From Gammaproteobacteria bacterium (GTDB lineage: Bacteria; Pseudomonadota; Gammaproteobacteria; CAKMZV01): 64,000 bases of DNA. Under the pieces are notes generated by a model. The model was not told where the DNA came from, did no database searches, and saw nothing but the letters and a program-made list of their open reading frames with translations. Each line of letters starts with the position of its first letter. Positions within the stretch are counted from its first letter, which is position 1. Location: positions 1,544,550-1,608,549 of the forward strand of contig OZ255827.1 in assembly GCA_965277625.1 (NCBI GenBank), given 5' to 3'. The translations under genes were made by a program, and so were the position numbers. Shown piece by piece: positions 7,355 to 21,447 of this stretch.

Positions 7355-9156
7355 GTTTTTTTCCTATCTAATACGGCCATAAAAGCTTCTTGCGGCACTT
7401 CAACACTGCCAATTGATTTCATACGTTTCTTGCCTTTTTTCTGTTTCTCTAATAATTTTTTCTTACGACTAATATCGCCACCGTAGCATTTGGCAGTGAC
7501 ATTTTTTCGCAGGGCTCTGATATTTGAACGCGCAATGATTTTAGCACCAATGGCCGCCTGCAAAGCGATTTCAAACATTTGCCGAGGGATTAAATCTTTG
7601 AGACTTTCAATTAAAGCGCGACTCCTATGGACAGAACGTTCGCGATGCATTAAACACGCCAAAGCATCGACATTTTCACCATTGATTAAAACATCGACCT
7701 TAACCAAATCAGAATGCATATAACCATCTATCTCATAATCCATCGAGGCATAACCTCTGGAACACGATTTAAGCTGTTCAAAAAAATCAACCACGACTTC
7801 ATTCAAAGGCAATCGCCAAATCATTTGAGCTTGTTTGCCCATATAGTTTAAATTTTGTTGAACCCCGCGTTTTTCGATACATAAGGTTATGATGTTGCCA
7901 ATGTACTCTTCTGGGGTGTAGATATTGGCTTTGATCATGGGTTCTTGAATCTCTGCATATTGACCAATATCAGGCATATTTGAGGGATTTTCAACCTCAA
8001 TGGTTGTGCCATTTTTCAATAGGACCTTATACAATACTGTGGGTGATGTGGTTATCAAACTCAAATCATATTCCCGTTCTAAACGCTCTCGTACAATCTC
8101 CATATGTAACATACCGAGAAAACCAATTCTAAAACCAAAACCCAAGGCATCTGAGGTTTCGGGTTCAAATTGCAATGCAGAATCGTTCAAACAAAGCTTT
8201 TCCAAGGCTTCCCTAAAGTCCACATAATCTTCGGTGCTGACGGGGTATAAGCCGGCAAACACACGAGGTTGAATTTGTTTAAAACCCCTTAATGGCTCAA
8301 CACAAGCATTTTTTAAATAGGTTAGGGTATCTCCTACTGGAACACCATGAATGTCTTTAACACCTGCGACTAAGTAACCGACGGCGCCCGCAGACAATTT
8401 TTTTAGAGGTTGGCGTTTGGGGTTGAATAAACCCAACTGTTGAATTTCATAGTCCATACCCGATGATAAGACTTTCATTCTTTGACCCACTTCAAAACAG
8501 CCATCGACGACTCGAATGAGTGAAACCACACCAAGGTAGGGATCAAACCATGAATCGATGATGAGAGCTTTGGGTGCTGAATCGAGATTCCCTTTTGGCG
8601 GCTCAACAAAATCCACAATTTTTTGTAATAATTCTGGCACGCCCTCACCCGTTTTTGCGCTCACAGCAGTGATCTCACTGGTGTCAATACCAATCATATT
8701 TTCAATGTCATCCTTTACCTGCTCAGGATTGGAAGCGGGCAAGTCAATTTTATTAAGCACGGGTAATACTTCAAGACCTTCGTCCATCGCTGCGTAGCAA
8801 TTGGCGATGGTTTGCGCTTCAACCCCCTGTGAGGCGTCAACGATCAACAGCGCTGCTTCACAAGCGGCCAAAGATCGTGAGACCTCATAGGAAAAATCAA
8901 CGTGACCGGGCGTGTCAATAAAATTGAGCTGATAGGCTTGGCCATCTTTGGTTGATTGAAATATAAGAGAGACCGACTGGGCTTTGATGGTGATGCCCCG
9001 CTCTCGCTCAATGTCCAAAGAATCAAGAACCTGCGCCTTCATTTCACGGTCTGCTAAAGCCCCACAATATTGAATGATTCGATCAGACAAGGTTGATTTA
9101 CCATGATCAATGTGCGCAATGATGGAGAAATTTCGTATGAATTTTTGTTCTAACAC
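7351..9156 (-). CDS. lepA: Elongation factor 4
   Basis: 601 aa with GTPase G1 (AHIDHGKST) and LepA-specific C-terminal domain. Confidence 0.95.
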
Positions 9157-9753
9157 AGACTAATGTCCTGAAAGCTATTTGGGTCTTTAATGAGTACGTT
9201 CAAGCGTATTTATATAGGCGCGCTATTGTACTTCAATGACCTTGATTTCACATCACATCTACCCTGAGGTCGCAATTCTTTTTGGACCATCGCTAAACGT
9301 TTAGTCGTACTAAGACACTTTGTAACTTTGATCACTTATACCGCCCATATCATATGGATGTCGTACAGTTTTAAACATCTCCATTTTTTTAATGAGCGAT
9401 TTGATAGACATTTCGTTAAACTTCTTAGTTTTATACATTTATTTTTATAATTTCAATTTTTAGATCTAGCCATATGGTTCCCATCGCGTTTAATTTTAAT
9501 TTGCTACACATTTGTAAAGCAATCTATTTTCAATGAAGCGATTTAAGCAGACTATAGAACGATCGAAAAACGACCATGAGGCTATGCCATTAACTAGAAC
9601 AACATAGAACTTTGGGATTTATCAGGACCAATGACCCTAAAACAGGTTCTGTATGACAATCAAAAGCAACAAAGTTTATAATACCGCGCTTATAAATCAA
9701 AGTTATCGCAATATTCCAATTTATCACCACTTAAAAATTATTATTCTAATCAG

Positions 9754-10617
9754 ATGAAAGGCATTATTCTCGCAGGAGGCACTGGATCTCGACTATTCCC
9801 ATTGACAATGGGCGTCTCTAAACACCTATTTCCCATTTACGACAAGCCCATGATTTATTACCCCTTGTCCGTCCTTATGCTGGCTGATATAAGGGAGATT
9901 TTGATCATCACCACACCAGAAGATCAGGCAAATTATAAACGCCTCCTCGGCAATGGTAAACAATGGGGGATTAGCATTGAATATTGTATTCAAACAAAAC
10001 CCAAGGGATTGGCAGAAGCTTTTATTTTGGGAAAATCTTTTATTGGTCAGGATTCAGTATGTCTCGTATTAGGTGATAATGTTTTCTGGGGTCATACCTT
10101 TTCTGCAAAATTACAAAAAGCCAGAGAAATTAAGGACGGTGCTGTCATTTTTGGCTATCAAGTCATTGACCCAGAAAGATTTGGCGTGGTAGAATTGGAT
10201 CGAGATGGATATGCAATCTCATTAGCAGAAAAGCCCAAAAAACCAAAATCAAATTTAGCCGTCACGGGTCTGTATTTTTATGATAATGATGTTATTAATA
10301 TCGCCCACGACATTCAACCCTCTGATCGTGGTGAACTCGAGATTACGTCAATTAATGAACACTATTTGAATCACAAGAAATTACACGTTGAAATCTTAAG
10401 TAGAGGGTTTGCTTGGTTAGATACTGGGACGCATTCCAGTTTATTAGATGCTTCAAAGTTTGTTGAAACCATAGAGAAACAGCAAGGTTATAAAATCGCT
10501 TGCCTTGAGGAAATTGCTTGGTTAAAGAAATGGATAAATACCAATCAATTACAACAGGAGGCCTTAAAATATACCAATAATAACTATGGTCAATATCTGC
10601 TCCGACTCATCAATTAA
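9754..10617 (+). CDS. rmlA: Glucose-1-phosphate thymidylyltransferase
   Basis: 287 aa. MKGIILAGGTGSRLFPLT...KQLLPIYDKPMIYY signature of RmlA. Confidence 0.9.
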   Translation: MKGIILAGGTGSRLFPLTMGVSKHLFPIYDKPMIYYPLSVLMLADIREILIITTPEDQANYKRLLGNGKQWGISIEYCIQTKPKGLAEAFILGKSFIGQDSVCLVLGDNVFWGHTFSAKLQKAREIKDGAVIFGYQVIDPERFGVVELDRDGYAISLAEKPKKPKSNLAVTGLYFYDNDVINIAHDIQPSDRGELEITSINEHYLNHKKLHVEILSRGFAWLDTGTHSSLLDASKFVETIEKQQGYKIACLEEIAWLKKWINTNQLQQEALKYTNNNYGQYLLRLIN

Positions 10618-10787
10618 ATAAGGCTACTAAGTCTAAAATACCGTATGGCTAAAACGATTTCAAACACAAGGGCTGGAGACGATATTGGTAAAGCGAACAC
10701 CTATTCTACTAGTATGTGGTGGATACATCATTCATGCTGTTGATCATTTTTTAAATTATGACAACAATCAAACTCTCGATATAGAAA

Positions 10788-11936
10788 ATGAATAAAGCAA
10801 TAAAATTTAATCAGCCCTATATAACTGGCAAAGAACTTGAATTAATAAACGATGTTTTTGCTCGAAATCAGTTCAGTGGTAATGGTTACTACACTCAAGC
10901 ATGCCAACAAAAAATCAAAGAAATTTTGGACGTTGAAAATGTGCTGTTAACCGACAGTTGCACGTCAGCTTTAGAAATATCAGCCCTGTTGCTTAGAAAA
11001 TGGCATGTAAAACAACAAATAATTTTGCCATCCTATACCTTTTCATCAACGGCTGCTGCGTTTGCACGTTGTGGTTTTGAAATAGTTTTTGCCGAGATTG
11101 AACCGCATACCATGATGATTGACATTGAGGATGTTAAACATAAGATTACCCCACATACTGCTGCCATTGTCATAGTGCACTACGCTGGATTTTGTGCTGA
11201 TTCAGCCAAATATAGAAAATTGTGCGATGATAACGGACTCTATTTGATTGAAGATGCTGCCCAAGCTTTTGGAAGTCGTAAAAATGACGAACCCATAGGC
11301 CGTGATGGTGATCTAAGCTGTTATTCATTCCACGAAACCAAAAATCTACACGCAGGATTGGCTGGTGCATTGGTGATCAATAATCATTCTTTTTTTGATA
11401 GAGCTTGTCATATGTGGGAAAGAGGCACAAACCGACAAGAAGTTTTAAAAGGGTTGATCGATAAATATTCTTGGGTCGAAATTGGCGGCAGTTTTTATCC
11501 AACTGAACTTCAAGCAGCTTTTTTATTGGCCCAACTGGATCATTTTCTTGAAAATTTATTGCAAAGAAAAAATCTATTTATGGGTTACTACAACTATTTT
11601 TGCAGCAAAAATTATTCAGATGTAAATTTTCCTCTTATACAAGATGATTTTCAAACAAACTACCATGCCTTTTGGCTAACTTTTAGGTCTGAGGCAGAAT
11701 GCGATTATGTTCGGAAGACCCTGTCTAAACAAAGCATATCTGCCTATATCGGTTATGTGCCACTCCATTCATCCCAAGTGGGGTTACAAATGAATTATCA
11801 ACCTGACGATCTTCCTTTAACGGAAGCATTTGCCAAAAAAATTCTAAGGCTTCCCATGCATAACAATATGAGTCAGAAAGATGTTGACAGCATTTGTACG
11901 AATATCAATCAAGCTTTAACACAATACCGAAAATAA
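10788..11936 (+). CDS. DegT/DnrJ/EryC1/StrS family sugar aminotransferase (WecE/ArnB-like, dTDP-4-keto-6-deoxyhexose aminotransferase)
   Basis: 382 aa. Collinear with E. coli WecE (SCTSALE, PSYTFxST, FSFHETKN, WxExG). Confidence 0.85.
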   Translation: MNKAIKFNQPYITGKELELINDVFARNQFSGNGYYTQACQQKIKEILDVENVLLTDSCTSALEISALLLRKWHVKQQIILPSYTFSSTAAAFARCGFEIVFAEIEPHTMMIDIEDVKHKITPHTAAIVIVHYAGFCADSAKYRKLCDDNGLYLIEDAAQAFGSRKNDEPIGRDGDLSCYSFHETKNLHAGLAGALVINNHSFFDRACHMWERGTNRQEVLKGLIDKYSWVEIGGSFYPTELQAAFLLAQLDHFLENLLQRKNLFMGYYNYFCSKNYSDVNFPLIQDDFQTNYHAFWLTFRSEAECDYVRKTLSKQSISAYIGYVPLHSSQVGLQMNYQPDDLPLTEAFAKKILRLPMHNNMSQKDVDSICTNINQALTQYRK

Positions 11937-11945
11937 AGAGATAAC

Positions 11946-12719
11946 ATGACCTCTTTTAACACAGCAAAATACGAAGTACAACAACTGCTCAACAAGATCT
12001 CTAAGACGGTTGAAGATGATCTACGACTTGAAGCCATTGTTGAAAGTATTAAAGACTGGTCTGAAATTGAATCCATTGCTTCAATTGAGCAGTGGTTTAT
12101 TGAACAGCAGGAACAGTGTTCAATGGTTTTAGAAGACATTCCAATAACGGAATGTAGAGGATGGTCGCTGAACCCAAAAAGTGGATTCGTTGAGCACGAC
12201 AGTGGTGAATTTTTCTATGTCCAAGGCATACGAATAAAACACTCCAAAAGTCGTGAAGTGACAGAGGGATGGGATCAGCCTATGTTAACTCAAGTGGGTT
12301 ATAACGGTGGCATTGTCGGCGTCATCAGAACCAAAATAAACGAAATACCTTATTACCTTGTGCAAGCCAAAGCCGAACCAGGCAATCCAGATAAAGTTCA
12401 AATCAGCCCTGCCCTGCAAGCAACATTCAGTAATATCAAAAAATCTCATGGGGGCAGTAATCCGCTTTTTCATGAATATTTTGAATTCCCTGATCAAAAT
12501 AATGCCACAGTATTATTCAACCAGTGGATGTCTGAAGATGGTGGACGATTACATTTAAAATGTAACAGAGGGATGATCGTCGAAATACTTTCTGAGGCAA
12601 TAACAAGTTTAGAAATACCGCCTTCTTTTAAATGGCTTTCATTGTTCCAAATCAAACACCTCATAAAAAATAGCAGCTGGGTGAATCCTCACGTTAGAGG
12701 CATCATTTCTCACCTATAA
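11946..12719 (+). CDS. Single-domain NDP-hexose 2,3-dehydratase-like protein (putative)
   Basis: 257 aa. FFYVQGIRIKH...GWDQPMLTQ...GGIVGVI...YYLVQAKAEPGN resembles one repeat of the EvaA/TylX3 Hexose_dehydrat domain. Recognition is from memory of the family motif, so it is tentative. Confidence 0.4.
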   Translation: MTSFNTAKYEVQQLLNKISKTVEDDLRLEAIVESIKDWSEIESIASIEQWFIEQQEQCSMVLEDIPITECRGWSLNPKSGFVEHDSGEFFYVQGIRIKHSKSREVTEGWDQPMLTQVGYNGGIVGVIRTKINEIPYYLVQAKAEPGNPDKVQISPALQATFSNIKKSHGGSNPLFHEYFEFPDQNNATVLFNQWMSEDGGRLHLKCNRGMIVEILSEAITSLEIPPSFKWLSLFQIKHLIKNSSWVNPHVRGIISHL

Positions 12720-12731
12720 AGATACTCCATC

Positions 12732-13682
12732 ATGAATTTGGCAGTTTGGTCTATAGGCAGTCACGCGAGAAAAAATATTCTCCCTGCTGTCATAAAATCT
12801 AAAAAAGTCAATCTCAAAGGTTTATTGACTCGACACACAAAACTCGGTGAAGACCTCTGTGCGGATTATCAGTGTGTTCAATACTCGTCAGCCGAAGCTT
12901 TACTACAATCACCAGACATTGATATCATTCATATTTGTAGCCCAAACGGGATTCATTTTGAACAAGCAAAAGCTTGTATTGAGCATGGTAAACATATCAT
13001 TGTCGAAAAAAGAGCCTTTTCTACATTGGAACAGTCCTATGAAATTGCAAATCTTGCCAAAGCGCAAAAGGTTTTAGTATTTGAAGCATTTATGTATCAA
13101 TATCATGCCCAATTTAAGCAATTAAAAAAATTGCTGGCAGAAAAAAAATATGGTGCCATAAGATCCATTTACGCATCTTTTGGTTTTCCATACTTACCAA
13201 AAAATAGTGTTCGACATTCAAAGAAACTCGATGGTGGTGCCTTAGGTGATGCAGGTGTTTATCCCATTTCAGCAATCTTGGCTTTAATGGGAAATGATGT
13301 GGATTTGGTTTATTCGACGATGAATTTTGAAAAAGATTTTGAAGTTGATACCTCTGGCTTAGCGGTGTTTAAAAACAAAGGCCAAAAAGGCATTTGCCAA
13401 TGGATATTTGGAGGCAGTTATAAAAACGCCATTGAAATTTGGTGTGAAAATGGCCATATTTATGTCGATCGAGCCTTTTCCAAAACCGAACAATTCCCTA
13501 CAAGCCTCTCAATTCATCACAATGGCGAAATCATTGAAACCATAAACTCTGGAGAAGACAATCATTTTACAAACATGTACGATCATTGCTACGATTTAAT
13601 TAATGAAGAACAATATGAATCATCCATTGAATCGCTGATTTTACAATCTGAAATCGTAGAAAAAATTCGCTTAAAACAATGA
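12732..13682 (+). CDS. Gfo/Idh/MocA family oxidoreductase (candidate NDP-sugar ketoreductase, KijD10-like)
   Basis: 316 aa. N-terminal Rossmann fold and IHICSPNGIHFEQAKACIEHGKHIIVEK consensus (EKP-like motif). Confidence 0.75.
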   Translation: MNLAVWSIGSHARKNILPAVIKSKKVNLKGLLTRHTKLGEDLCADYQCVQYSSAEALLQSPDIDIIHICSPNGIHFEQAKACIEHGKHIIVEKRAFSTLEQSYEIANLAKAQKVLVFEAFMYQYHAQFKQLKKLLAEKKYGAIRSIYASFGFPYLPKNSVRHSKKLDGGALGDAGVYPISAILALMGNDVDLVYSTMNFEKDFEVDTSGLAVFKNKGQKGICQWIFGGSYKNAIEIWCENGHIYVDRAFSKTEQFPTSLSIHHNGEIIETINSGEDNHFTNMYDHCYDLINEEQYESSIESLILQSEIVEKIRLKQ

Positions 13683-14626
13683 TCAGTTTTGTTATTCCCG
13701 TTTATTTCACGTCTCCTTCAGAGTCTGGGTTGACAAAGTTGATCGACAGAATCACTGCGATTTGTGAACAAATAGATTCGTCTTTTGAAATCATTTTGGT
13801 GGACGATGCTTGCCCATCAAATTCTTGGGATCATATTCAGAAACTGTGTGTCAAAATGCCTGCCATAGTCAAAGGCATCAAACACAGTCGAAATTTTGGT
13901 CAACAAAATGCCATTACTACTGGACTTTCCATGAGTAGTGGTGAGTGGATGGTCGTTATGGATTGTGATTTTCAAGATGACCCTGAAGCCATCTTCGATC
14001 TCTGGGCAAAAAAAAATGAAGGCTTTGATTATGTTGTTATCTCACGTTTTAATCGTCAAGATTCATTTTTAAAAAAATCAACCTCTTATCTCTTTTGGCG
14101 ATTATTCTCATTTTTAACCAATACAACGCTAGATGGTTCTGTTGCAAACTATGGCATCTATAACCGTAAAGTCATCAATGCTTATTTATCTATCAATGAT
14201 CAAATAAAATCTTTTCCAGCCCACGTTAATTGGTTAGGATTCAATAGGGCAACCATAGAATATCAGCACCAACCGAGATTGAGCGGCAAATCATCTTATA
14301 GCATTGCCAAAATGTTCATATTAGCAACCAATACCATACTGAATTTTTCTGACAGACCCTTGTGGCTAATTGCACAAACAGGGCTTTGGATCTCTGCACT
14401 CAGCATATTGACCGCTTTGTGTTTTTTTATAGGCGCTTTATTGGACATATTTGTGGTTCAAGGCTGGGCGGGTATTATTGTGTCCATTTGGTTATTCTCA
14501 GGCTTAATCATTTTTTTACTTGGGATAATAGGACTCTACGTTTCCAAAACATTTGAGCAAACCAAAAACCGCCCCACAGCCATTATTTCAGAAAAAATTG
14601 GCTTTGAACGAGAAGAACTAAAATGA
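13679..14626 (+). CDS. GT2 polyprenyl-phosphate glycosyltransferase (ArnC/GtrB-like)
   Basis: 315 aa. ISFVIPVYF...ILVDDAC...NFGQQNA...VVMDCDFQDDP with two C-terminal transmembrane helices, the ArnC/GtrB architecture. Confidence 0.8.
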   Translation: MISFVIPVYFTSPSESGLTKLIDRITAICEQIDSSFEIILVDDACPSNSWDHIQKLCVKMPAIVKGIKHSRNFGQQNAITTGLSMSSGEWMVVMDCDFQDDPEAIFDLWAKKNEGFDYVVISRFNRQDSFLKKSTSYLFWRLFSFLTNTTLDGSVANYGIYNRKVINAYLSINDQIKSFPAHVNWLGFNRATIEYQHQPRLSGKSSYSIAKMFILATNTILNFSDRPLWLIAQTGLWISALSILTALCFFIGALLDIFVVQGWAGIIVSIWLFSGLIIFLLGIIGLYVSKTFEQTKNRPTAIISEKIGFEREELK

Positions 14627-14991
14627 ATTATTTATATATTTTAGGTTGTATAATCTTCACCGTTTATGGGCAGTTAATCATTAAACATAGACTGGCATCT
14701 CATCCACCCTTACCTGGTGATTTCTCTGAAAAGATGATTGCAGTCATCAAGTTGCTTTTTGACCCCTTTATTGCCTCAGGTCTATTTGCTGCATTCATAG
14801 CTGCGCTTCTGTGGATCGTTGCCCTCTCAAAATTTGAATTGAGCTTTGCTTATCCCATGATGAGTTTCTCTTTCGTGTTAGTCAGCATATTCTCGTTCTT
14901 ACTATTCAATGAGGTAATGAGCGTGTATAAAATTTTAGGATTAATACTAATCATGTCAGGTATTTTTATTCTGAATTTGCATGCTAAATGA
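14623..14991 (+). CDS. ArnE/ArnF-like (EamA/SMR-type) small 4-TM flippase subunit
   Basis: 122 aa. Alignable by eye to E. coli ArnF (IFTVYGQLIIKHRLASHPP vs IASVAQLSLGFAASHLPP; AYPMMSFSFVLVSI...IMSGIFIL). Confidence 0.6.
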   Translation: MNYLYILGCIIFTVYGQLIIKHRLASHPPLPGDFSEKMIAVIKLLFDPFIASGLFAAFIAALLWIVALSKFELSFAYPMMSFSFVLVSIFSFLLFNEVMSVYKILGLILIMSGIFILNLHAK

Positions 14992-16385
14992 GCATAACTT
15001 TTCCTTCTTTAACCGTTATTGATTGGGTACTAACTGCCCTCATATTAGCCATTATTTGTTGTGCCATTTATCTTTTTGGCAACTATTGCACCCACTGCAT
15101 TGATCAGGCTTGGACTGCATCTTTTGGTCTCAATTTTATTCAAAACCAAACCTATGTTGAAGACTTAACCTTTGCAAATTCTGCAGGAGATTTTCGTTTT
15201 TTTGGGATGACACTTGCATATGTCAATGGCAAGTTAGCATCAACATTTAGTACCCATCCCTACTTTTTTGCTTTAATTTCAACTTGTTTTACACTGCTTT
15301 CCAACGTTTTTTGGTATTTTGGTTTTAAACGATTATTTAATCGAAACATCGCTTTATTTACAACCTTATGCCTGTTTATTGCCACCACAAGTTTTGGTGT
15401 TAGCCAAATTAATCGTCCTGAAGCGCTTTTGTTTCTTCTCTGCTCAGTCAGCTTCTGTTGTGCCAGTTATCGCTATTATTTCATTGCGGCGATTTTAGCA
15501 GGCATTTGTATTGAAATTCATCCCATGGGGTTCATCTGCTTCATTTATTTGACTGGCGTATTACTCATTTCTGATGATCGTAAGCATATTAAACATTGGT
15601 TGGCTATAGGGATTGCTGGTTTGATTGGACTGGGGTATTTTCTGCTCCTTCATCATCCCTATTTAGAACTTTATCAAACTATTTTAAGTCAAGCACGAGG
15701 TGCAAATTTTATTCAAAATAATTTCATTTTGGCTTATTTTTTTGATGTCAGATATTTTAAAAATGTCCCCGAAGCCTTTCTTTTAATTGCGATGATTGTT
15801 GTCACACTAATCAAAAAAAATGCTTTCTCCAATACAGCTGTACGTCTTAGCCTATTATGGTTAATAGCCATTTTGTTGTTTTCCTTATTGATTGGCAGAG
15901 GCAATACGCAGTATGGTATTTATTTATTACCACCGCTATTCCTACTCTCTGTCGCACAACTTCATCAATGGAAGACGTTCAAACCGATCATTGTGCTAAT
16001 CGTTGTTTATTACTTACTGCAATATATGGCTTTAATTTATATTAATGGCCATTTTAGAATGCATCAATACCATAATCAAATCAATCAACACCTCCCAAAA
16101 AAGTCAGAGGGGACCATTTATTTAGGGCATTCTAATCACTGGTTTACATTTAATAACGACCCCGACCGCCAGTTTTACACCGTCCAAGAGAATGATTTAA
16201 AATTTCTTAAAAATCAAAGATTTATCTGGATTCGCGACAACATTTGGGAACCAATTAACGCCCAACCGACAACTGAATTTCAAAAGTTGGCTAAAAAATG
16301 TCCAATGAAATTGCTAAGCCATTTCGATTACGGTCGGCATTCAGTACGATTTGAGCAATATGATTGCCGTAAAATTGCACCTTAA
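14988..16385 (+). CDS. Polytopic membrane protein, putative GT-C glycosyltransferase (ArnT/Gtr-type-like)
   Basis: 465 aa with ~11 predicted TM helices, acidic residues in the first extracytoplasmic loop (YVEDL) and a ~90-aa soluble C-terminal tail. Gene position matches arnC-arnE/F-arnT or gtrB-gtrA-gtr(type) logic. Confidence 0.4.
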   Translation: MSITFPSLTVIDWVLTALILAIICCAIYLFGNYCTHCIDQAWTASFGLNFIQNQTYVEDLTFANSAGDFRFFGMTLAYVNGKLASTFSTHPYFFALISTCFTLLSNVFWYFGFKRLFNRNIALFTTLCLFIATTSFGVSQINRPEALLFLLCSVSFCCASYRYYFIAAILAGICIEIHPMGFICFIYLTGVLLISDDRKHIKHWLAIGIAGLIGLGYFLLLHHPYLELYQTILSQARGANFIQNNFILAYFFDVRYFKNVPEAFLLIAMIVVTLIKKNAFSNTAVRLSLLWLIAILLFSLLIGRGNTQYGIYLLPPLFLLSVAQLHQWKTFKPIIVLIVVYYLLQYMALIYINGHFRMHQYHNQINQHLPKKSEGTIYLGHSNHWFTFNNDPDRQFYTVQENDLKFLKNQRFIWIRDNIWEPINAQPTTEFQKLAKKCPMKLLSHFDYGRHSVRFEQYDCRKIAP

Positions 16386-16514
16386 ATTACCCTGCTGTCT
16401 TGAAAATTAAATAAAAAATAATCCACAACTGTGGGAAATTTTATAGAAAACGTAAATCTTATTGTAAAAAACCGCCTAAATAAATCATCCATAAACAATC
16501 TATTGAGAAAATAT

Positions 16515-17540
16515 ATGAATACCACTGACGCCGCTTTAACATCTAATACTCCGCCTTTACTAAACAAAATTTCATCAGTGATTGGGTTAATCGTGCCAAT
16601 CGCTAGCTTTTTTCTATTGTCAAAAACCTTAAGTCCCCCTGCATTATGGGTGATGATGGGTGTATTACTCGGATTGCCCAGTGGTTTGAGCTTATTCATG
16701 CCCCGTTTTAATAAATGGGCGCAACTCTCAAGTACCATTGCCCTCATTGCTATTGTTGTCATTGCATCTGCAGACTTATGGCATGCATTATTGAATCAAG
16801 TACAAGCCGATCTATCGTTTCAACTATTGAGTCTCATATTGGCTTTGCTCATTGCTGCTGTATTGCAATTAACGCAGTTGCTGTATAGTGTGACCGAAGA
16901 TGAAATGAAGGTTCACGATCTAACCGATAAGGCTTTAAGTGGTCCGTCATTGGTCATAAGTTTCAGCATTGGTCTGATTCTGACTTCTTTGATGCTATCT
17001 TGGATGCAGACGACGGAAATCGCGCTCATGTCCAGTATTTCTCCAAAATTTTTAACCCGCGGCGTTATCCCACCACTGACCCTCACCTTGTTTTTCTGGG
17101 GCGCCTTATTGTTATTCGGTAAATGGCTCAAAATGCTGATTCAAGTCAAGCATAGTGATAGTGCCCGTTCTCACTTCAACACAGCGCATCAAAAAACTGA
17201 CACTTCAGTTAAAAAACAAGATGAATTCTTTCAACTAATCTGGCAACAATTTGAGGCTTCTTACACCCTTCCTCGATACATCAATTGGGCCATTCCCATA
17301 CTTGGGTTTATTGGCACAGTTTTGGGCATTTCTCTTGCAACAGAGGGTTTGAGTGCCATATTGGCCAATAATGATTCAGAGTTTAATCAGTTGCTCGGTT
17401 CTGCTCTTTCCCCGCTCGGTATCGCCTTTGATACCACTTTAATTGCACTCTCATTATCAATTGCCTTGGCGTTTTCTCAAACCATACTTTATCGCTGGGA
17501 AGAAAAACAATTGCTCATTTTGGAAGAAAAACTTAAATAA
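16515..17540 (+). CDS. MotA/TolQ/ExbB-family proton channel protein
   Basis: C-terminal ILGFIGTVLGI...LGIAFDTTLIALSLSIA matches the ExbB/TolQ TM2-TM3 signature, with extra N-terminal TM helices. ATG at 16515 preferred over the GTG at 16431, which lies inside a promoter-like AT-rich palindrome. Confidence 0.6.
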   Translation: MNTTDAALTSNTPPLLNKISSVIGLIVPIASFFLLSKTLSPPALWVMMGVLLGLPSGLSLFMPRFNKWAQLSSTIALIAIVVIASADLWHALLNQVQADLSFQLLSLILALLIAAVLQLTQLLYSVTEDEMKVHDLTDKALSGPSLVISFSIGLILTSLMLSWMQTTEIALMSSISPKFLTRGVIPPLTLTLFFWGALLLFGKWLKMLIQVKHSDSARSHFNTAHQKTDTSVKKQDEFFQLIWQQFEASYTLPRYINWAIPILGFIGTVLGISLATEGLSAILANNDSEFNQLLGSALSPLGIAFDTTLIALSLSIALAFSQTILYRWEEKQLLILEEKLK

Positions 17541-17543
17541 TCC

Positions 17544-18095
17544 ATGCCCAAAAAGATCCATCGTAAAGGGAAAAGCCTGTTCAATAGTGGCGATATCGAT
17601 GCGCCTATGGTTGAGGTGTTCGGTGGTGCCTTGGCATTGTTGATCATCATTTTTATTTTAATCAATTTGATTGTGACGCAAGACATCCGCGCCATGTTGG
17701 ACCGTTCAACCGAAGACGCCAAATTTAAAGTGTCTTGGCAAAATGGCACCGAAGGTTTGGTGGTTATTTCCTACCCTGACAAGCTGCGCATCATTGAAAC
17801 CAATGAGAGTATCCCCCGCTCTAAAATATGCACACCCAATAACCCTTTCCTGCGCTACGTCGAGAACATCTATAACAATTCGCAGAATCAACAACTGATT
17901 TTTGCCATTTTAGACAATGGGGTGGAAACCATGGCCATTGCTCGCAATTGTATGCGCGCCCGCTGGGCTCAACGGGTCATCAATATTGGTTGGATTATTG
18001 CCAATCAAGACTTGCTGTCCACCGTTCGATTGCAGGATTTACCTGCGCGCATAAAGAAATCGTTAAACTTTAATAAACCACCAACAACGCAATGA
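17544..18095 (+). CDS. ExbD/TolR/MotB-like biopolymer transport protein
   Basis: 183 aa. Short cytoplasmic N-terminus, a single TM (FGGALALLIIIFILINLIV, like ExbD VMLVLLIIFMV), then a periplasmic domain. Confidence 0.5.
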   Translation: MPKKIHRKGKSLFNSGDIDAPMVEVFGGALALLIIIFILINLIVTQDIRAMLDRSTEDAKFKVSWQNGTEGLVVISYPDKLRIIETNESIPRSKICTPNNPFLRYVENIYNNSQNQQLIFAILDNGVETMAIARNCMRARWAQRVINIGWIIANQDLLSTVRLQDLPARIKKSLNFNKPPTTQ

Positions 18096-19882
18096 GTGAG
18101 CGTGTACAGCAACAGAATCAATCTAAATCATTTGGGTTGTTGGGCCAAAGTGGTGTGGCATTGGCTGATATTTTGGCAAACAGCGTTGCAGTGATTCTGA
18201 TCTTAATTGCCGTAACGCTCACCGTTCAACAAAAAAAAGCGCAAGATGAATTAGAACAAAATGCGGACATCACCACTATTTTAGCGAGACAGTTAGCAAC
18301 CAGCGTTGTGTTCAACGATTTGCCAACCAGCCCCCCTGCTCGATTACACGACTATCACTCATGCGAGATTCCGCATGACTGCAATCCCTATTTGTATCCG
18401 ATCATTGAAATGCACGATGGCTATATCCGTATTTTTAATAACAATACCAAAATTTATCGTAATGAACTGCTACGAAAAGAGAATGCCTTTGACTTATACA
18501 TCAAAAATTTACGTCCTGAAGAAATATTAAATTTGCGTTTAGACGTCTATTCTGTGAGTGAATACTACCTGACATTGGGCATTTTGAAAGAACATAATGC
18601 CAGTCCCAGACATTGGCACTACCTTGGTGAAAGTGTGCCACCATTGAAAAATCAAATACTTAATGAAGAACGCATTGCCGGACATCAACAAGACCAAAGT
18701 TCAGAAGGTTTGGATGAGGGTCAAAGCAACAGTGACAGTGAGGGCAGCAATGATTCAGAAAGTTCAAGCCGCTCAAACCAACAAAGCCAGGGTCAAACGC
18801 CTTCACAAATGCCCGAAGGAACCGAATTGGCCGATTCTGAATCTCGGCAGTCTCTGCAGTATGATAGCCTTCTGCCGCCAGCCGATGGCGGGGCATCCAA
18901 TGAAGTCTCTGAAAATGCCCAAGAACAACCTGGCGGACCAACTGAATCCGAATCGTCTCAAAGCAACAAAACTCCCACGACTTTATTTGAAGCCTTAACG
19001 GGTATGATGGCAGAATCTCAAGGCCTTACCCCTCCTGAGCAAAGTGGTCAAGGTTCATCGGGCAAACGATCGATGCGTGTTCACGTCCCCAATGCTGGAA
19101 AATCAACTGGAAACGAAGGCAAATCCTCCGACAGTGTTAATTTACCTGCCGATGAATATCACCGTGTTGTGATTGCCTACATTCTGACAATGCTTGAACA
19201 AGCACACATTCAAAAAACTTTGGCACTCCCTCAAGCGAGAGAATGGCTGGCGCAGCTCGCTCAAAGCCCAGAGAGCATCCAACAACTGCCCTTGTATCCG
19301 CTGATTGATTCATTAGCGATGATCTTTGATCATGGGCATGAAGCCCGATCTTCAACATTGCAAAAAACCGTTATTGACGCAAGCTTGAGAGATAATCAAC
19401 TGCAAATTCCCTATAACGTTGCCTACCCTGCACCTGTTATAAAAACCTATAACACCCCTGTTTGGTTAGACAAACTGACTCAAGCCCAAAACGTTCAACC
19501 AGCGTTGTTAATGCGACTGTATCCCAGTCTATTTAAAGGCGAAGTTTTAGAATTTCCCGAAGGTTATACGGTTATTGTCCATCCTGATGAAGCTGCTAGA
19601 ACCATTGCTCAATGGCGACCCATTGCTGTACTCGATGCCCAATTAAATGACATCAGTTTAGGATTTGTTTATGCCTCAATAGCCAATGAGCAACTGGTGA
19701 TTCACGCAGGCGAAAACCAATTGTTATTGAATAAATTTCCCATTTCAGATCCACAAATCAGTGCCAAAGACAACACCGAAATTCTCACGCCCATACTATG
19801 GCTGTTTGGATTATTTACCCTCTTGGTATTACTGTCAAGAATGCGTATTCGAACTCGACGAGAATCCCTCAAATCCATTTAG
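18092..19882 (+). CDS. ExbD/TolR-like protein with long acidic low-complexity extension and C-terminal TM anchor
   Basis: 596 aa. N-terminal ExbD-like TM (ADILANSVAVILILIAVTL), an ExbD-like domain, then ~200 aa of S/E/Q/D-rich low-complexity sequence, a C-terminal globular part and a terminal hydrophobic helix. Confidence 0.4.
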   Translation: MSERVQQQNQSKSFGLLGQSGVALADILANSVAVILILIAVTLTVQQKKAQDELEQNADITTILARQLATSVVFNDLPTSPPARLHDYHSCEIPHDCNPYLYPIIEMHDGYIRIFNNNTKIYRNELLRKENAFDLYIKNLRPEEILNLRLDVYSVSEYYLTLGILKEHNASPRHWHYLGESVPPLKNQILNEERIAGHQQDQSSEGLDEGQSNSDSEGSNDSESSSRSNQQSQGQTPSQMPEGTELADSESRQSLQYDSLLPPADGGASNEVSENAQEQPGGPTESESSQSNKTPTTLFEALTGMMAESQGLTPPEQSGQGSSGKRSMRVHVPNAGKSTGNEGKSSDSVNLPADEYHRVVIAYILTMLEQAHIQKTLALPQAREWLAQLAQSPESIQQLPLYPLIDSLAMIFDHGHEARSSTLQKTVIDASLRDNQLQIPYNVAYPAPVIKTYNTPVWLDKLTQAQNVQPALLMRLYPSLFKGEVLEFPEGYTVIVHPDEAARTIAQWRPIAVLDAQLNDISLGFVYASIANEQLVIHAGENQLLLNKFPISDPQISAKDNTEILTPILWLFGLFTLLVLLSRMRIRTRRESLKSI

Positions 19883-19884
19883 CC

Positions 19885-21447
19885 ATGAGCCAAAATCGCG
19901 TCATTGCCCTCATTCTGTTTATTGTCATTACTTTGGCATTAGTCTGGTGGCGTTGGGTTTATTTGTCCCCGCAGCAACTCGATTTAGTCACCGTTGTTGA
20001 AACAGACCAACCGGCTGTCGTCAGCCCCATGGATGAGGTTCTCAAAAAGCATATCAACTTGCTGACCCATACCCAGACTTTATTGCAGCAATTTAAACGC
20101 CCCAGTGAATCCATCACTTTAAAACCGCTGTGGATTGACCGTTGTGAGGTTACGCAAAGAGACTTTCGCCAATTTGCCACTTGGCGAGCGGCTCAGGTCA
20201 TTCCGCCAAATGCCCATCCAGCAACCCCCCAGCGATGGGCGTATAAAAGTCAATCAGAAAATCATCGCATACTCGGACAACTGAGCATGCCTGCAGGTGG
20301 ATTAAGTTATTTAGATGGTTGGGCGTATTGCCATGCTGCTGGCGGTCGCTTACCAAGCAGTCAGGAGTTTGAAGCAATCAGTGCAGGCAAGGAACAACGT
20401 TTATATCCTTGGGGCAATACACTGGTTGACGATGCTTGGCCCTATAAGGACCCTTCTTTGAACGTTGCCCAAGTGTGCGGTTCGCATCCAGCAACTGATA
20501 CACCCGAAGGCATCCATGATTTAGGCAACAATGTTTTAGAATGGACGACAAACAACGACCAAGCTGTGTTGATGGGTGGCAATGCCTACCATCGCCCTTT
20601 GGCATTAAATGCCATCAACCTTATCAGGCGTTCAGCACCTGTGGATTTTCGTTCGCAATACACAGGTTTTCGTTGCGTCTATGACCGAACCCAACAAGCC
20701 AATTTAGATTCGCTGCCTTTGCCGTGGGGGAGCCAGCCAAAAATTGCCAGTATAGATGCTTCAACATTGACAATCGGTCCACCCAAATCTGCTAAAATTC
20801 CCGCATTATTATTGCATTTAAAGGATGATCAACTCAAATCGATCCAAAACTTTTCCATCATCCCGACACGCTTAAATTTAAAAGTGATGCGTTATGAAGT
20901 CACGGTGGCATCGTACACTAAATTCTTACGCGACCCATTGGTGCGATTCGGTTTTTATAATCACCCACAACAACCCGTCAACATGGCCCATGATCCCGTC
21001 CGATGGGACACACAGCAACAAAATCCAAGTCATCCTGTGACCAACATCACGTGGTGGAATGCCTGGTCATTTGCCAAATGGGTGGGCGGGCGACTGCCAA
21101 CAGCCCCTGAATGGACGGCGCTTGCGGGCGCACATTCCACGCGTTTCCCCTATGGAAACCAATACCAACCCCTAGCCTCTGTGGACAGAAATCGCATAGA
21201 CAGCCAATGGCAATCCTTAGAAGTCATCGCCTCAAATGATGACAGCAAACACGCAATCAAAGGTTTTGCTGGTAATGTTGCCGAATGGACCAGCACATCG
21301 CTATTGCGCGGCAATGCTTTTACCTTGGTCATCAAGGGTGGCAGTTTCTTCATGCCTGAAGAAGGCGGAGAAATCGGTCAAAGTGGCGAAGCACCGCCAA
21401 ATTATAAAAATGCAGACTTGGGTTTCCGGGTGGTTTTTCCGAATTAG
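19885..21447 (+). CDS. Membrane-anchored tandem FGE-sulfatase (SUMF1/EgtB/GldK-like) domain protein
   Basis: Starts 3 nt after the upstream stop. N-terminal TM, then two FGE-like repeats (GGRLPSSQEFE...YPWGN...GNNVLEWT...GFRCVYD and GGRLPTAPEWT...GNVAEWT...GFRVVF). No paired catalytic cysteines seen near the C-terminus of either repeat. Confidence 0.7.
   Translation: MSQNRVIALILFIVITLALVWWRWVYLSPQQLDLVTVVETDQPAVVSPMDEVLKKHINLLTHTQTLLQQFKRPSESITLKPLWIDRCEVTQRDFRQFATWRAAQVIPPNAHPATPQRWAYKSQSENHRILGQLSMPAGGLSYLDGWAYCHAAGGRLPSSQEFEAISAGKEQRLYPWGNTLVDDAWPYKDPSLNVAQVCGSHPATDTPEGIHDLGNNVLEWTTNNDQAVLMGGNAYHRPLALNAINLIRRSAPVDFRSQYTGFRCVYDRTQQANLDSLPLPWGSQPKIASIDASTLTIGPPKSAKIPALLLHLKDDQLKSIQNFSIIPTRLNLKVMRYEVTVASYTKFLRDPLVRFGFYNHPQQPVNMAHDPVRWDTQQQNPSHPVTNITWWNAWSFAKWVGGRLPTAPEWTALAGAHSTRFPYGNQYQPLASVDRNRIDSQWQSLEVIASNDDSKHAIKGFAGNVAEWTSTSLLRGNAFTLVIKGGSFFMPEEGGEIGQSGEAPPNYKNADLGFRVVFPN

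Follow-up and report, generated by a model that had tools for sequence, protein, structure and literature searches.

In Gram-negative bacteria, ion-driven motors of the 5:2 type are, to our knowledge, the only route by which energy is delivered beyond the inner membrane, and each class that is understood, i.e. the flagellar, Ton, Tol, gliding/type IX secretion system (T9SS) and Zorya motors, has revealed a distinct biology. In Ton systems, one ExbB together with two ExbD paralogs is a known gene arrangement, and the AglRQS motor of Myxococcus consists of one MotA/TolQ-like and two different TolR/ExbD-like subunits. Here, we analyze a cassette of four co-directional genes, referred to as G1-G4, on the + strand of a 64,000-nucleotide (nt) stretch of DNA from a Gammaproteobacteria bacterium (assembly GCA_965277625.1, contig OZ255827.1, positions 1,544,550 to 1,608,549; in the following, the window). 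The cassette spans window positions 16515-21447 and encodes a channel-like protein, two membrane proteins with TolR-like folds, and a membrane-anchored protein with two FGE-sulfatase domains. These genes had been singled out in a preceding reading of the sequence (hereafter, the original prediction) as the parts of a distinct, undescribed energised envelope machine.

A recent survey of MotAB homologs lists numerous clades whose function is unknown as "generic ion transporter" clades and does not mention FGE/sulfatase proteins (PMC12505986). Searches of the full-text literature turned up neither a paper in which an FGE-sulfatase protein is combined with a MotA/ExbB/ExbD/TolR operon nor a mention of the accession numbers of the metagenome-assembled genomes (MAGs) in question, and none of the sources searched names any part of the cassette beyond "hypothetical" or "MotA/TolQ/ExbB family".

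Results

The four genes form a conserved and self-contained cassette

A pattern scan for relatives of G1, in which each species was represented by one genome, found 507 places, and the best 80 of these together with five earlier loci gave 85 loci for comparison. G1-G2-G3-G4 are present in the same order and on the same strand in 76 of the 85. This arrangement is far beyond chance, and the genes that the original prediction grouped together co-occur across genomes. Similarly, independently annotated contigs with G1 homologs of 35-50% identity carry the same four-gene set, with products of ~340-460, 165-180, 520-600 and 520-550 amino acids (aa) and the FGE-sulfatase annotation on the last gene, while the surroundings of these contigs are entirely different from each other. 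Neither all-against-all clustering of the open reading frames (ORFs) of the 80 loci nor a Pfam scan of the neighbours revealed a fifth broadly conserved gene. Rather, the 135 immediate neighbours are spread over 113 Pfam families, and the commonest, kinase/TPR proteins and TonB-dependent receptors (seven each), occur within one group of close relatives in each case. Because the flanking genes vary from locus to locus, the cassette is self-contained.

The exceptions among the 85 loci are truncated contigs, two loci of Ca. Porisulfidus, to which we return below, and three lone G1-like genes. The latter (L027, L051 and L069; match from 9001) have no G2-G4 nearby and may be orphan paralogs or decayed cassettes; in L027, the lone gene is followed by CoA-transferase genes. 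In the window, the four genes are co-directional and tightly packed, as had been noted originally, with spacings of +3 nt (G1-G2), -4 nt (G2-G3) and +2 nt (G3-G4).

G1 is a divergent channel-like subunit

G1 (16515-17540, +; 341 aa, ATG start) is the candidate channel subunit. The Pfam family MotA_ExbB matches 29 of 33 G1 homologs at E <= 0.01, with a best value of 4.4e-8. The conserved part is a transmembrane (TM) hairpin, residues 258-319 (17286-17471, +), which we presume to be the ion pathway. In an alignment of 33 sequences, the stretches PILGFIGTVLGISLA and GIAFDTTLIALSLS of this hairpin are invariant, as are T268, D306, T307 and T308. In other words, the MotA/TolQ/ExbB motif previously read from this gene is real. 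We take the threonines of the GTV and TT motifs to correspond to T148/T181 of ExbB and T145/T178 of TolQ. By hydropathy, G1 has eight hydrophobic segments. The last three make up a conserved ExbB/TolQ-like core in the order TM segment, K/R-rich loop of 56 residues, TM segment, acidic loop of 24 residues, TM segment and tail of 22 residues, and the five extra N-terminal segments are poorly conserved. The predicted cytoplasmic part is minimal and comprises the 56-residue loop and the 22-residue tail.

A sub-profile of the hairpin matches PDB chain 8vvn_C (E 6e-4), a protein of 696 aa that is present in five chains and carries the deposition name "MotA/TolQ/ExbB proton channel domain-containing protein". 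We read this chain as a ZorA-type subunit because its length and its five copies fit such a subunit, in agreement with the faint matches of G1 to ZorA models (NCBIfam ZorA_4, E 0.077 and 11.9 bits vs. a cut-off of 500; PADLOC ZorA, E 0.0045 and 13.8 bits). Based on the family-wide MotA_ExbB matches, the motifs, the core topology and the hairpin match to 8vvn_C, G1 is most likely a divergent member of the MotA/TolQ/ExbB superfamily that is not placeable in any characterised subfamily.

G2 and G3 have acidic membrane helices and TolR-like folds

G2 (17544-18095, +; 183 aa) is a predicted bitopic protein with an N-terminal TM helix and a periplasmic domain, while G3 (18092-19882, +; 596 aa) is predicted to have two membrane anchors with a TolR-like domain, a linker and a C-terminal domain between them. 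The TM helix of G2 (residues 23-45) carries the motif P-x-x-E24-V-F-G-G, in which E24 does not vary among 25 homologs and is retained by 15 of 17 distant representatives. Likewise, the N-terminal TM helix of G3 carries the motif LADILAN with D26, which is invariant in 36 homologs. By eye, these motifs resemble the helix motifs of ExbD, TolR and MotB. In AlphaFold2 models, the helix is followed in both proteins by a domain with the order beta-beta-beta-alpha-beta-alpha-beta (G2, residues 71-152; G3, residues 94-200, 18371-18691, +), and the best compact structural match of both periplasmic domains is TolR. The mean predicted local distance difference test (pLDDT) score is 70.8 for G2 and 73.4 for G3, and 81-96 within the TolR-like domains. 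Moreover, hhalign detects a weak link between the G2 domain and the G3 domain (E 0.0019). Thus, of the ExbD/TolR-like character that had been proposed for the N-termini of both proteins, the acid-bearing TM helix and the TolR-like fold stand, whereas membership in a sequence-level family does not: relative to ExbD/TolR (PF02472), both have the acidic TM helix and the alpha/beta fold but give no sequence match. Homologs of G2 and G3 form 41 and 119 clusters, respectively, none of which is named beyond "hypothetical protein".

G3 is not simply ExbD-like, as had been suggested, given its length of 596 aa, its extra C-terminal domain and its second TM helix. The linker (residues 203-345; 18698-19126, +) is predicted from pLDDT values <50, composition and alignment to be disordered; it is S/G/E/Q-rich and acidic with a net charge of -14, and its length is conserved, staying within 104-159 aa in all 36 orthologs, whereas its sequence is not. 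The C-terminal periplasmic domain (residues 350-555; 19139-19756, +) is modelled as a helical bundle and a beta-sandwich and has no recognisable relative among solved structures in the PDB. It is followed by a C-terminal TM anchor (residues 562-585; 19775-19846, +; hydropathy 2.32) and a basic tail, with the helix spanning residues 562-595 in the model. This TM helix is found in all 36 orthologs. With TM helices near both its N- and its C-terminus, G3 is thus predicted to be tethered to the inner membrane by each of its ends.

G4 is a tandem FGE-fold protein without the catalytic cysteines

The N-terminus of G4 (19885-21447, +; 520 aa) carries a signal-anchor (residues 6-24), and two FGE-sulfatase (C-type-lectin-like) domains follow at approximately residues 72-268 and 333-519. 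The G4 ORF opens at 19798. We place the start at the ATG at 19885 (MSQNRV...) because the resulting length of 520 aa agrees with that of the orthologs, which measure 517-544 aa. The match of G4 to the Pfam family FGE-sulfatase is strong and covers two stretches (E 4.9e-47), while its relatives in the PDB, i.e. FGE, pFGE, EgtB, OvsA and CalU17, are distant (E 2e-8 to 7e-4). The catalytic Cys pair of human FGE, C336/C341, lies between the GGS and GFR motifs. In G4, the interval between the GG(S/N) and GFR motifs reads GGNAYHRPLALNAINLIRRSAPVDFRSQYTGFRC in domain 1 and GGSFFMPEEGGEIGQSGEAPPNYKNADLGFRV in domain 2, and neither contains a Cys. Among 49 orthologs, domain 1 has four conserved Cys residues (87, 149, 198 and 264), suggesting structural disulfides and a periplasmic location. 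Domain 2 of G4 has no Cys at all. His127 of domain 1 is 96% conserved. These data confirm the earlier description of gene 4 as an N-terminally anchored protein with two FGE-sulfatase repeats that lack the paired cysteines; an intact Cys pair that might have been overlooked is absent from both domains.

With the Cys pair missing from both domains, G4 is ruled out as a catalytic FGE. It is also ruled out as an EgtB/OvoA/SenA synthase by low equivalog scores (SenA, 54.5 vs. a cut-off of 420; EgtB, 52.1 vs. 360), from matches that cover the FGE-like part only, and by the lack of any Pfam match to a DinB-type iron-binding domain. For GldK (TIGR03525), the score is 29.4 vs. a cut-off of 350. Finally, G4 is ruled out as a lipoprotein, since none of the 49 orthologs has a lipobox. 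Non-catalytic FGE-fold domains in other proteins are established or predicted modules for ligand binding or sensing (PMC7159879; PMC13581612). Because such domains bind ligands or act as sensors elsewhere, G4 is, by analogy, most likely not an enzyme but a module that binds a ligand in the periplasm or envelope, for instance a peptide, a glycan or a further protein.

The closest relatives are almost all from uncultured marine, often sponge-associated bacteria

All of the 80 best loci are from MAGs or uncultured drafts and, besides single bins labelled Deltaproteobacteria and Spirochaetales, they are labelled Gammaproteobacteria. Among the labels are Pseudomonadales, Ca. Poriferihabitaceae, Ca. 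Porisulfidus, Ca. Oxydemutatoraceae, Ca. Azotimanducaceae, Thiomicrospira and Thioalkalivibrio sp. HK1. Many host names among these best 80 are sponge-linked, and MAGs with some of these names have been reported as cobionts in sponge genome notes; the bin series SB06xx, COS/IRC/STY, PNG, Langseth, Gsub and HK1 presumably derive from sponge or coral holobionts. Together, this suggests, but does not prove, an enrichment in marine host-associated, largely sponge-associated bacteria, since the best 80 were by design those closest to a query that is probably host-associated as well. Copies sourced from JGI are rare among the homolog clusters listed. Several of the host chromosomes are only 1.5-2.5 Mb (as MAGs), and the retention of the cassette in chromosomes of this size argues that it is under selection.

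Complete or near-complete cassettes are also present in bins with non-gammaproteobacterial labels (L056, Deltaproteobacteria; L063, Spirochaetales; and L004), and this reflects either mis-binning or horizontal transfer between bacteria that share a habitat. We rejected an association with mobile elements or phages: no relatives of G2 were found in plasmid and phage collections and none of G1 in viral contigs.

Surroundings of the cassette

G1 is preceded by an AT-rich gap of 129 nt (16386-16514, +; guanine-cytosine (GC) content 0.256), which we presume to be the promoter or leader region. The AT-richness that had been pointed out is real, whereas its promoter-like nature is not backed by a consensus promoter scan, which gave nothing above chance level in this gap; we therefore only presume a promoter here. 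Promoter and terminator scans also yielded nothing beyond chance that bears on the boundaries of the operon. For G1, an alternative GTG start exists at 16431 (ORF 16431-17540); the database copy of the protein (P0001; 341 aa, 100% identical) uses the ATG at 16515, and an exact look-up of P0001 returned no record. Short ORFs (86-126 aa), on the opposite strand or in a different frame, overlap genes of the cassette at 16382-16762 (-), 17489-17749 (-), 18660-18941 (-) and 18663-18998 (+) and are most likely spurious because the genes that they overlap are strongly conserved.

On the 3' side, the cassette is followed by guaB and guaA, and on the 5' side it is preceded by a cluster with sugar-nucleotide, GT2, EamA and polytopic-protein genes; the remainder of the window holds housekeeping genes. 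The 5' cluster is a glycosylation island (9532-16385) with sugar-nucleotide, aminotransferase, dehydratase, GT2, small-EamA and polytopic-protein genes. Its last gene (14988-16385) encodes a 465-aa polytopic protein without a Pfam match at 1e-5 that, from its position after GT2 and small EamA genes, looks like an ArnT-type lipid-linked glycosyltransferase. The original prediction had raised the possibility that island and cassette are functionally linked. We reject such a link. Among the fetched loci, the island genes and guaBA flank the cassette in only one (L006), whose collinearity with the window, at a nucleotide identity of 95%, holds from window position 9532 rightwards only, and the GC content differs between the island (0.37) and the cassette (0.45; guaBA, 0.47; whole window, 0.42). 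Because the adjacency is not conserved and the base composition is different, the position of the cassette beside the island is incidental. Because the collinearity with L006 begins at 9532, the left edge of the island is a strain-level breakpoint. To the left of this point, the window has lepA and lepB, and in their place L006 encodes a paralog that is 44% identical to the 465-aa polytopic protein.

Two recurrent neighbours deserve mention. A TonB-dependent receptor of ~1100 aa is encoded directly 3' of G4 on the same strand in L030 (14002-17304), L047, L058-L061 and L075. These loci represent one group of closely related Gammaproteobacteria/Pseudomonadales MAGs, and the receptor may point to a Ton-like output of this subclade or may simply reflect inherited synteny. 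TerB-domain proteins are encoded a few kb 5' of the cassette in L002/L003 (3389-4162) and L004 (4529-5074); their proximity in two unrelated contexts is probably a coincidence.

Discussion

Based on these data, we suggest that G1-G4 make up a self-contained inner-membrane 5:2 ion-driven motor of the MotAB/ExbBD/TolQR kind with a periplasmic output, and we put the probability of this reading at roughly 0.55. In this model, G1 would form the outer, ion-conducting ring, which would be pentameric by analogy, while the TM helices of G2 and G3 with E24 and D26 would form the central axle, probably as a heterodimer. Protons or sodium ions flowing through the interface of G1, G2 and G3 would power a rotation or a conformational cycle, and the work would be passed to G4 via the long ectodomain of G3, i.e. 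its linker, C-terminal domain and second anchor. The FGE/C-type-lectin-fold domains of G4 would then bind, rather than modify, an envelope ligand. Because G1 has almost no cytoplasmic domain, the output would have to be periplasmic. Our best guess for the role of such a motor is the maintenance or remodelling of the envelope, selected in marine host-associated, largely sponge-associated, Gammaproteobacteria. As for the distinct, undescribed energised machine of the original prediction, the lack of specific annotation and literature agrees with "undescribed", whereas we infer the energisation, as well as the stoichiometry, the contact with G4 and the target.

Several observations weigh against this model. 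At the sequence level, the G1 copy of the window matches MotA_ExbB (PF01618) with E 8e-4 and 19.5 bits and thus scores below the gathering score of 22.9, and the full-length G1 profile finds nothing at E <= 1 among PDB sequences. G2 and G3 have no Pfam or NCBIfam match at E <= 1, and their profiles retrieve no ExbD, TolR or MotB chain from PDB sequences but only low-complexity noise. PADLOC likewise links neither protein to a named family. When the G2 profile was run exhaustively with HMMER against 1.84 billion cluster representatives, just 30 proteins were found at E <= 1e-3, and those that were aligned look like G2's own family. At the level of the operon, the two Ca. Porisulfidus loci (L045 and L048, ~9001-15408) have G1-G2-G3 followed by gatA (Amidase) and gatB and no adjacent G4. 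Because of these two loci, G4 may not be obligatory; in Porisulfidus, it may be encoded elsewhere in the genome or be dispensable. Finally, the evidence in support of a motor is computational throughout.

The same parts can be assembled differently. In a divergent Ton/Tol-like system, G1, G2 and G3 would form the energiser, G3 would act as a TonB or TolA that powers an outer-membrane transporter or serves in tethering, and G4 would be an accessory binder. The known arrangement of one ExbB with two ExbD, the TolR-like fold of both G2 and G3, the long disordered spacer of G3, which is as in TonB and TolA, and the TonB-dependent receptor of ~1100 aa 3' of G4 in one subclade all fit such a system. 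However, no TonB_C domain was detected in G1-G4 by Pfam or found among the conserved neighbours, and TolA, TolB, Pal and CpoB are absent from the cassette, from ~10 kb on either side of it in the window and from the conserved neighbours. The linker of G3 is acidic and S/G/E/Q-rich rather than Pro-rich; both ends of G3 are predicted to be anchored in the inner membrane, which is not the case for TonB and TolA; and the receptor is adjacent in that subclade only (7 of 135 neighbours), in closely related genomes with shared synteny. We consider this explanation unlikely. More generally, and in line with the original prediction, no TonB, Pal or flagellar genes, nor Tol or Glt genes, lie in or beside the cassette, here or in related loci. 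Thus, no canonical partners were found that would place it in a characterised Tol-Pal, TonB or Agl locus. A gliding/T9SS-like apparatus, in which the motor would drive a periplasmic ring of the FGE-fold protein as GldLM/PorLM do with GldK/PorK-GldN/PorN, is suggested by the shared pairing of an ion-driven motor with a Cys-less FGE-fold periplasmic protein and by a partial match of G4 to the NCBIfam model for GldK (E 5e-7 over 57 residues); also, the two FGE domains of G4 could oligomerise. Yet this match falls far short of the cut-off, as described, so that G4 is not a GldK equivalog; G4 is inner-membrane-anchored and a non-lipoprotein in 49 of 49 orthologs; and the motor subunits are of the ExbB/TolR type, with no Pfam or NCBIfam match to GldL/PorL, GldM/PorM or GldN/PorN in G1-G3 or the conserved neighbours. 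Genes for GldL, GldM, GldN, PorN, Sov or PorV-like proteins are absent from the cassette and the conserved neighbours, and the hosts are labelled Gammaproteobacteria, not Bacteroidota. The parallel to PorK/GldK lipoproteins that had been drawn is reduced by these data to an analogy of composition, and we regard a T9SS-like apparatus as the least probable of the readings considered here.

If, instead, the cassette were an anti-phage system similar to Zorya, a ZorAB-type motor would sense perturbation of the envelope, with the FGE-fold domains of G4 as the sensor. The weak matches of the G1 hairpin to ZorA_4 and the PADLOC ZorA model and the match to 8vvn_C, which we read as ZorA-type, point in this direction, and some loci adjoin methyltransferase, Fic, AAA or Uma2 genes. 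FGE-fold domains also have sensor roles in STANDs of defence systems and in conflict systems related to these (PMC7159879; PMC13581612). By contrast, G1 ends 22 residues past its last TM helix and lacks the long cytoplasmic tail of ZorA, and the cassette has neither the OmpA-like peptidoglycan-binding domain of ZorB nor any of the ZorC-G effector genes, including ZorC/D/E-type or other cytoplasmic effectors. No PADLOC model matches G3 or G4, the flanks are mostly housekeeping genes, and relatives of the cassette are lacking from plasmid, phage and viral-contig collections. Moreover, it is kept with conserved sequence in small symbiont genomes, unlike patchy defence islands. A defence function is, in our opinion, quite unlikely. 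Even less can be said for an enzymatic function, in which G4 would be an FGE-family oxidase, or an enzyme that modifies peptides or thiols, and would use a non-canonical active site, and G1-G3 would export, import or position its substrate. EgtB, OvsA and SenA are FGE-family enzymes that lack the FGE Cys pair, partial matches to such enzymes reach 1e-14 and 3e-8, and His127 in domain 1 is highly conserved. But the EgtB and SenA scores of 52-54 are far from the cut-offs of 360-420, the required DinB-type iron-binding domain is absent, neither domain has a Cys pair and domain 2 lacks Cys altogether, and no sulfatase or other substrate gene is linked among the 135 neighbours. We find this explanation very improbable.

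Returning to a 5:2 motor with a periplasmic output, a more far-reaching proposal is that the cassette represents a previously unrecognised functional class of such machines. Here, a heterodimeric Glu/Asp axle in a ring of G1 would work the doubly anchored G3, the linker and C-terminal domain of which would act on, or be gated by, the lectin-like G4. Such a machine would adapt the envelope to one particular niche, i.e. life in sponges and other marine invertebrate hosts, and would have spread horizontally among unrelated members of these microbiomes. This proposal is tentative, and we give it clearly less than an even chance. We also speculate that the placement of the first helix of G3 in the axle and of its last helix outside the ring would constitute a new mechanical arrangement. 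Independently of this proposal, the cassette would add a conserved and compact motor-type member with two different axle proteins, one of them with a Glu, and with further unusual parts, i.e. a doubly anchored subunit with an unmatched domain and a non-catalytic tandem FGE-fold partner. Its marine, sponge-linked distribution, which includes small MAG chromosomes, makes it a candidate for an envelope function relevant to symbiosis. With four genes in ~5 kb, it is tractable for heterologous expression and cryo-EM.

How does the cassette compare to known systems? With the Tol and Ton motors, G1 shares the TM hairpin of the MotA/TolQ/ExbB type, including the threonines of its GTV and TT motifs, while G2 and G3 share the acidic N-terminal TM helix and the periplasmic TolR-like domain; the delivery of energy to the periplasm is presumably also shared. 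Unlike these motors, the cassette has a G1 in which five TM segments are added at the N-terminus and the cytoplasmic domain is strongly reduced, as well as two different B-type subunits that show no sequence-level ExbD/TolR match and of which one has Glu in place of Asp. It comes without TonB, TolA, TolB and Pal, its G3 is predicted to be doubly anchored and has a novel domain, and its FGE-fold partner is without counterpart in those motors. With AglRQS of Myxococcus, the cassette shares the composition of one A-type and two B-type subunits. In this respect the parallel drawn in the original prediction is correct as an analogy of composition. Differences are that the Glt partner genes are missing, that the lineage is that of Gammaproteobacteria MAGs, and that G3 is far larger than AglQ or AglS. 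Lastly, pFGE/SUMF2, PvdO, GldJ/GldK, the variable proteins of diversity-generating retroelements and the sensor domains of STANDs all have, like G4, an FGE/C-type-lectin fold without the Cys pair. What sets G4 apart from these non-catalytic proteins is that its two domains are arranged in tandem on an inner-membrane anchor and that they are encoded within a motor operon.

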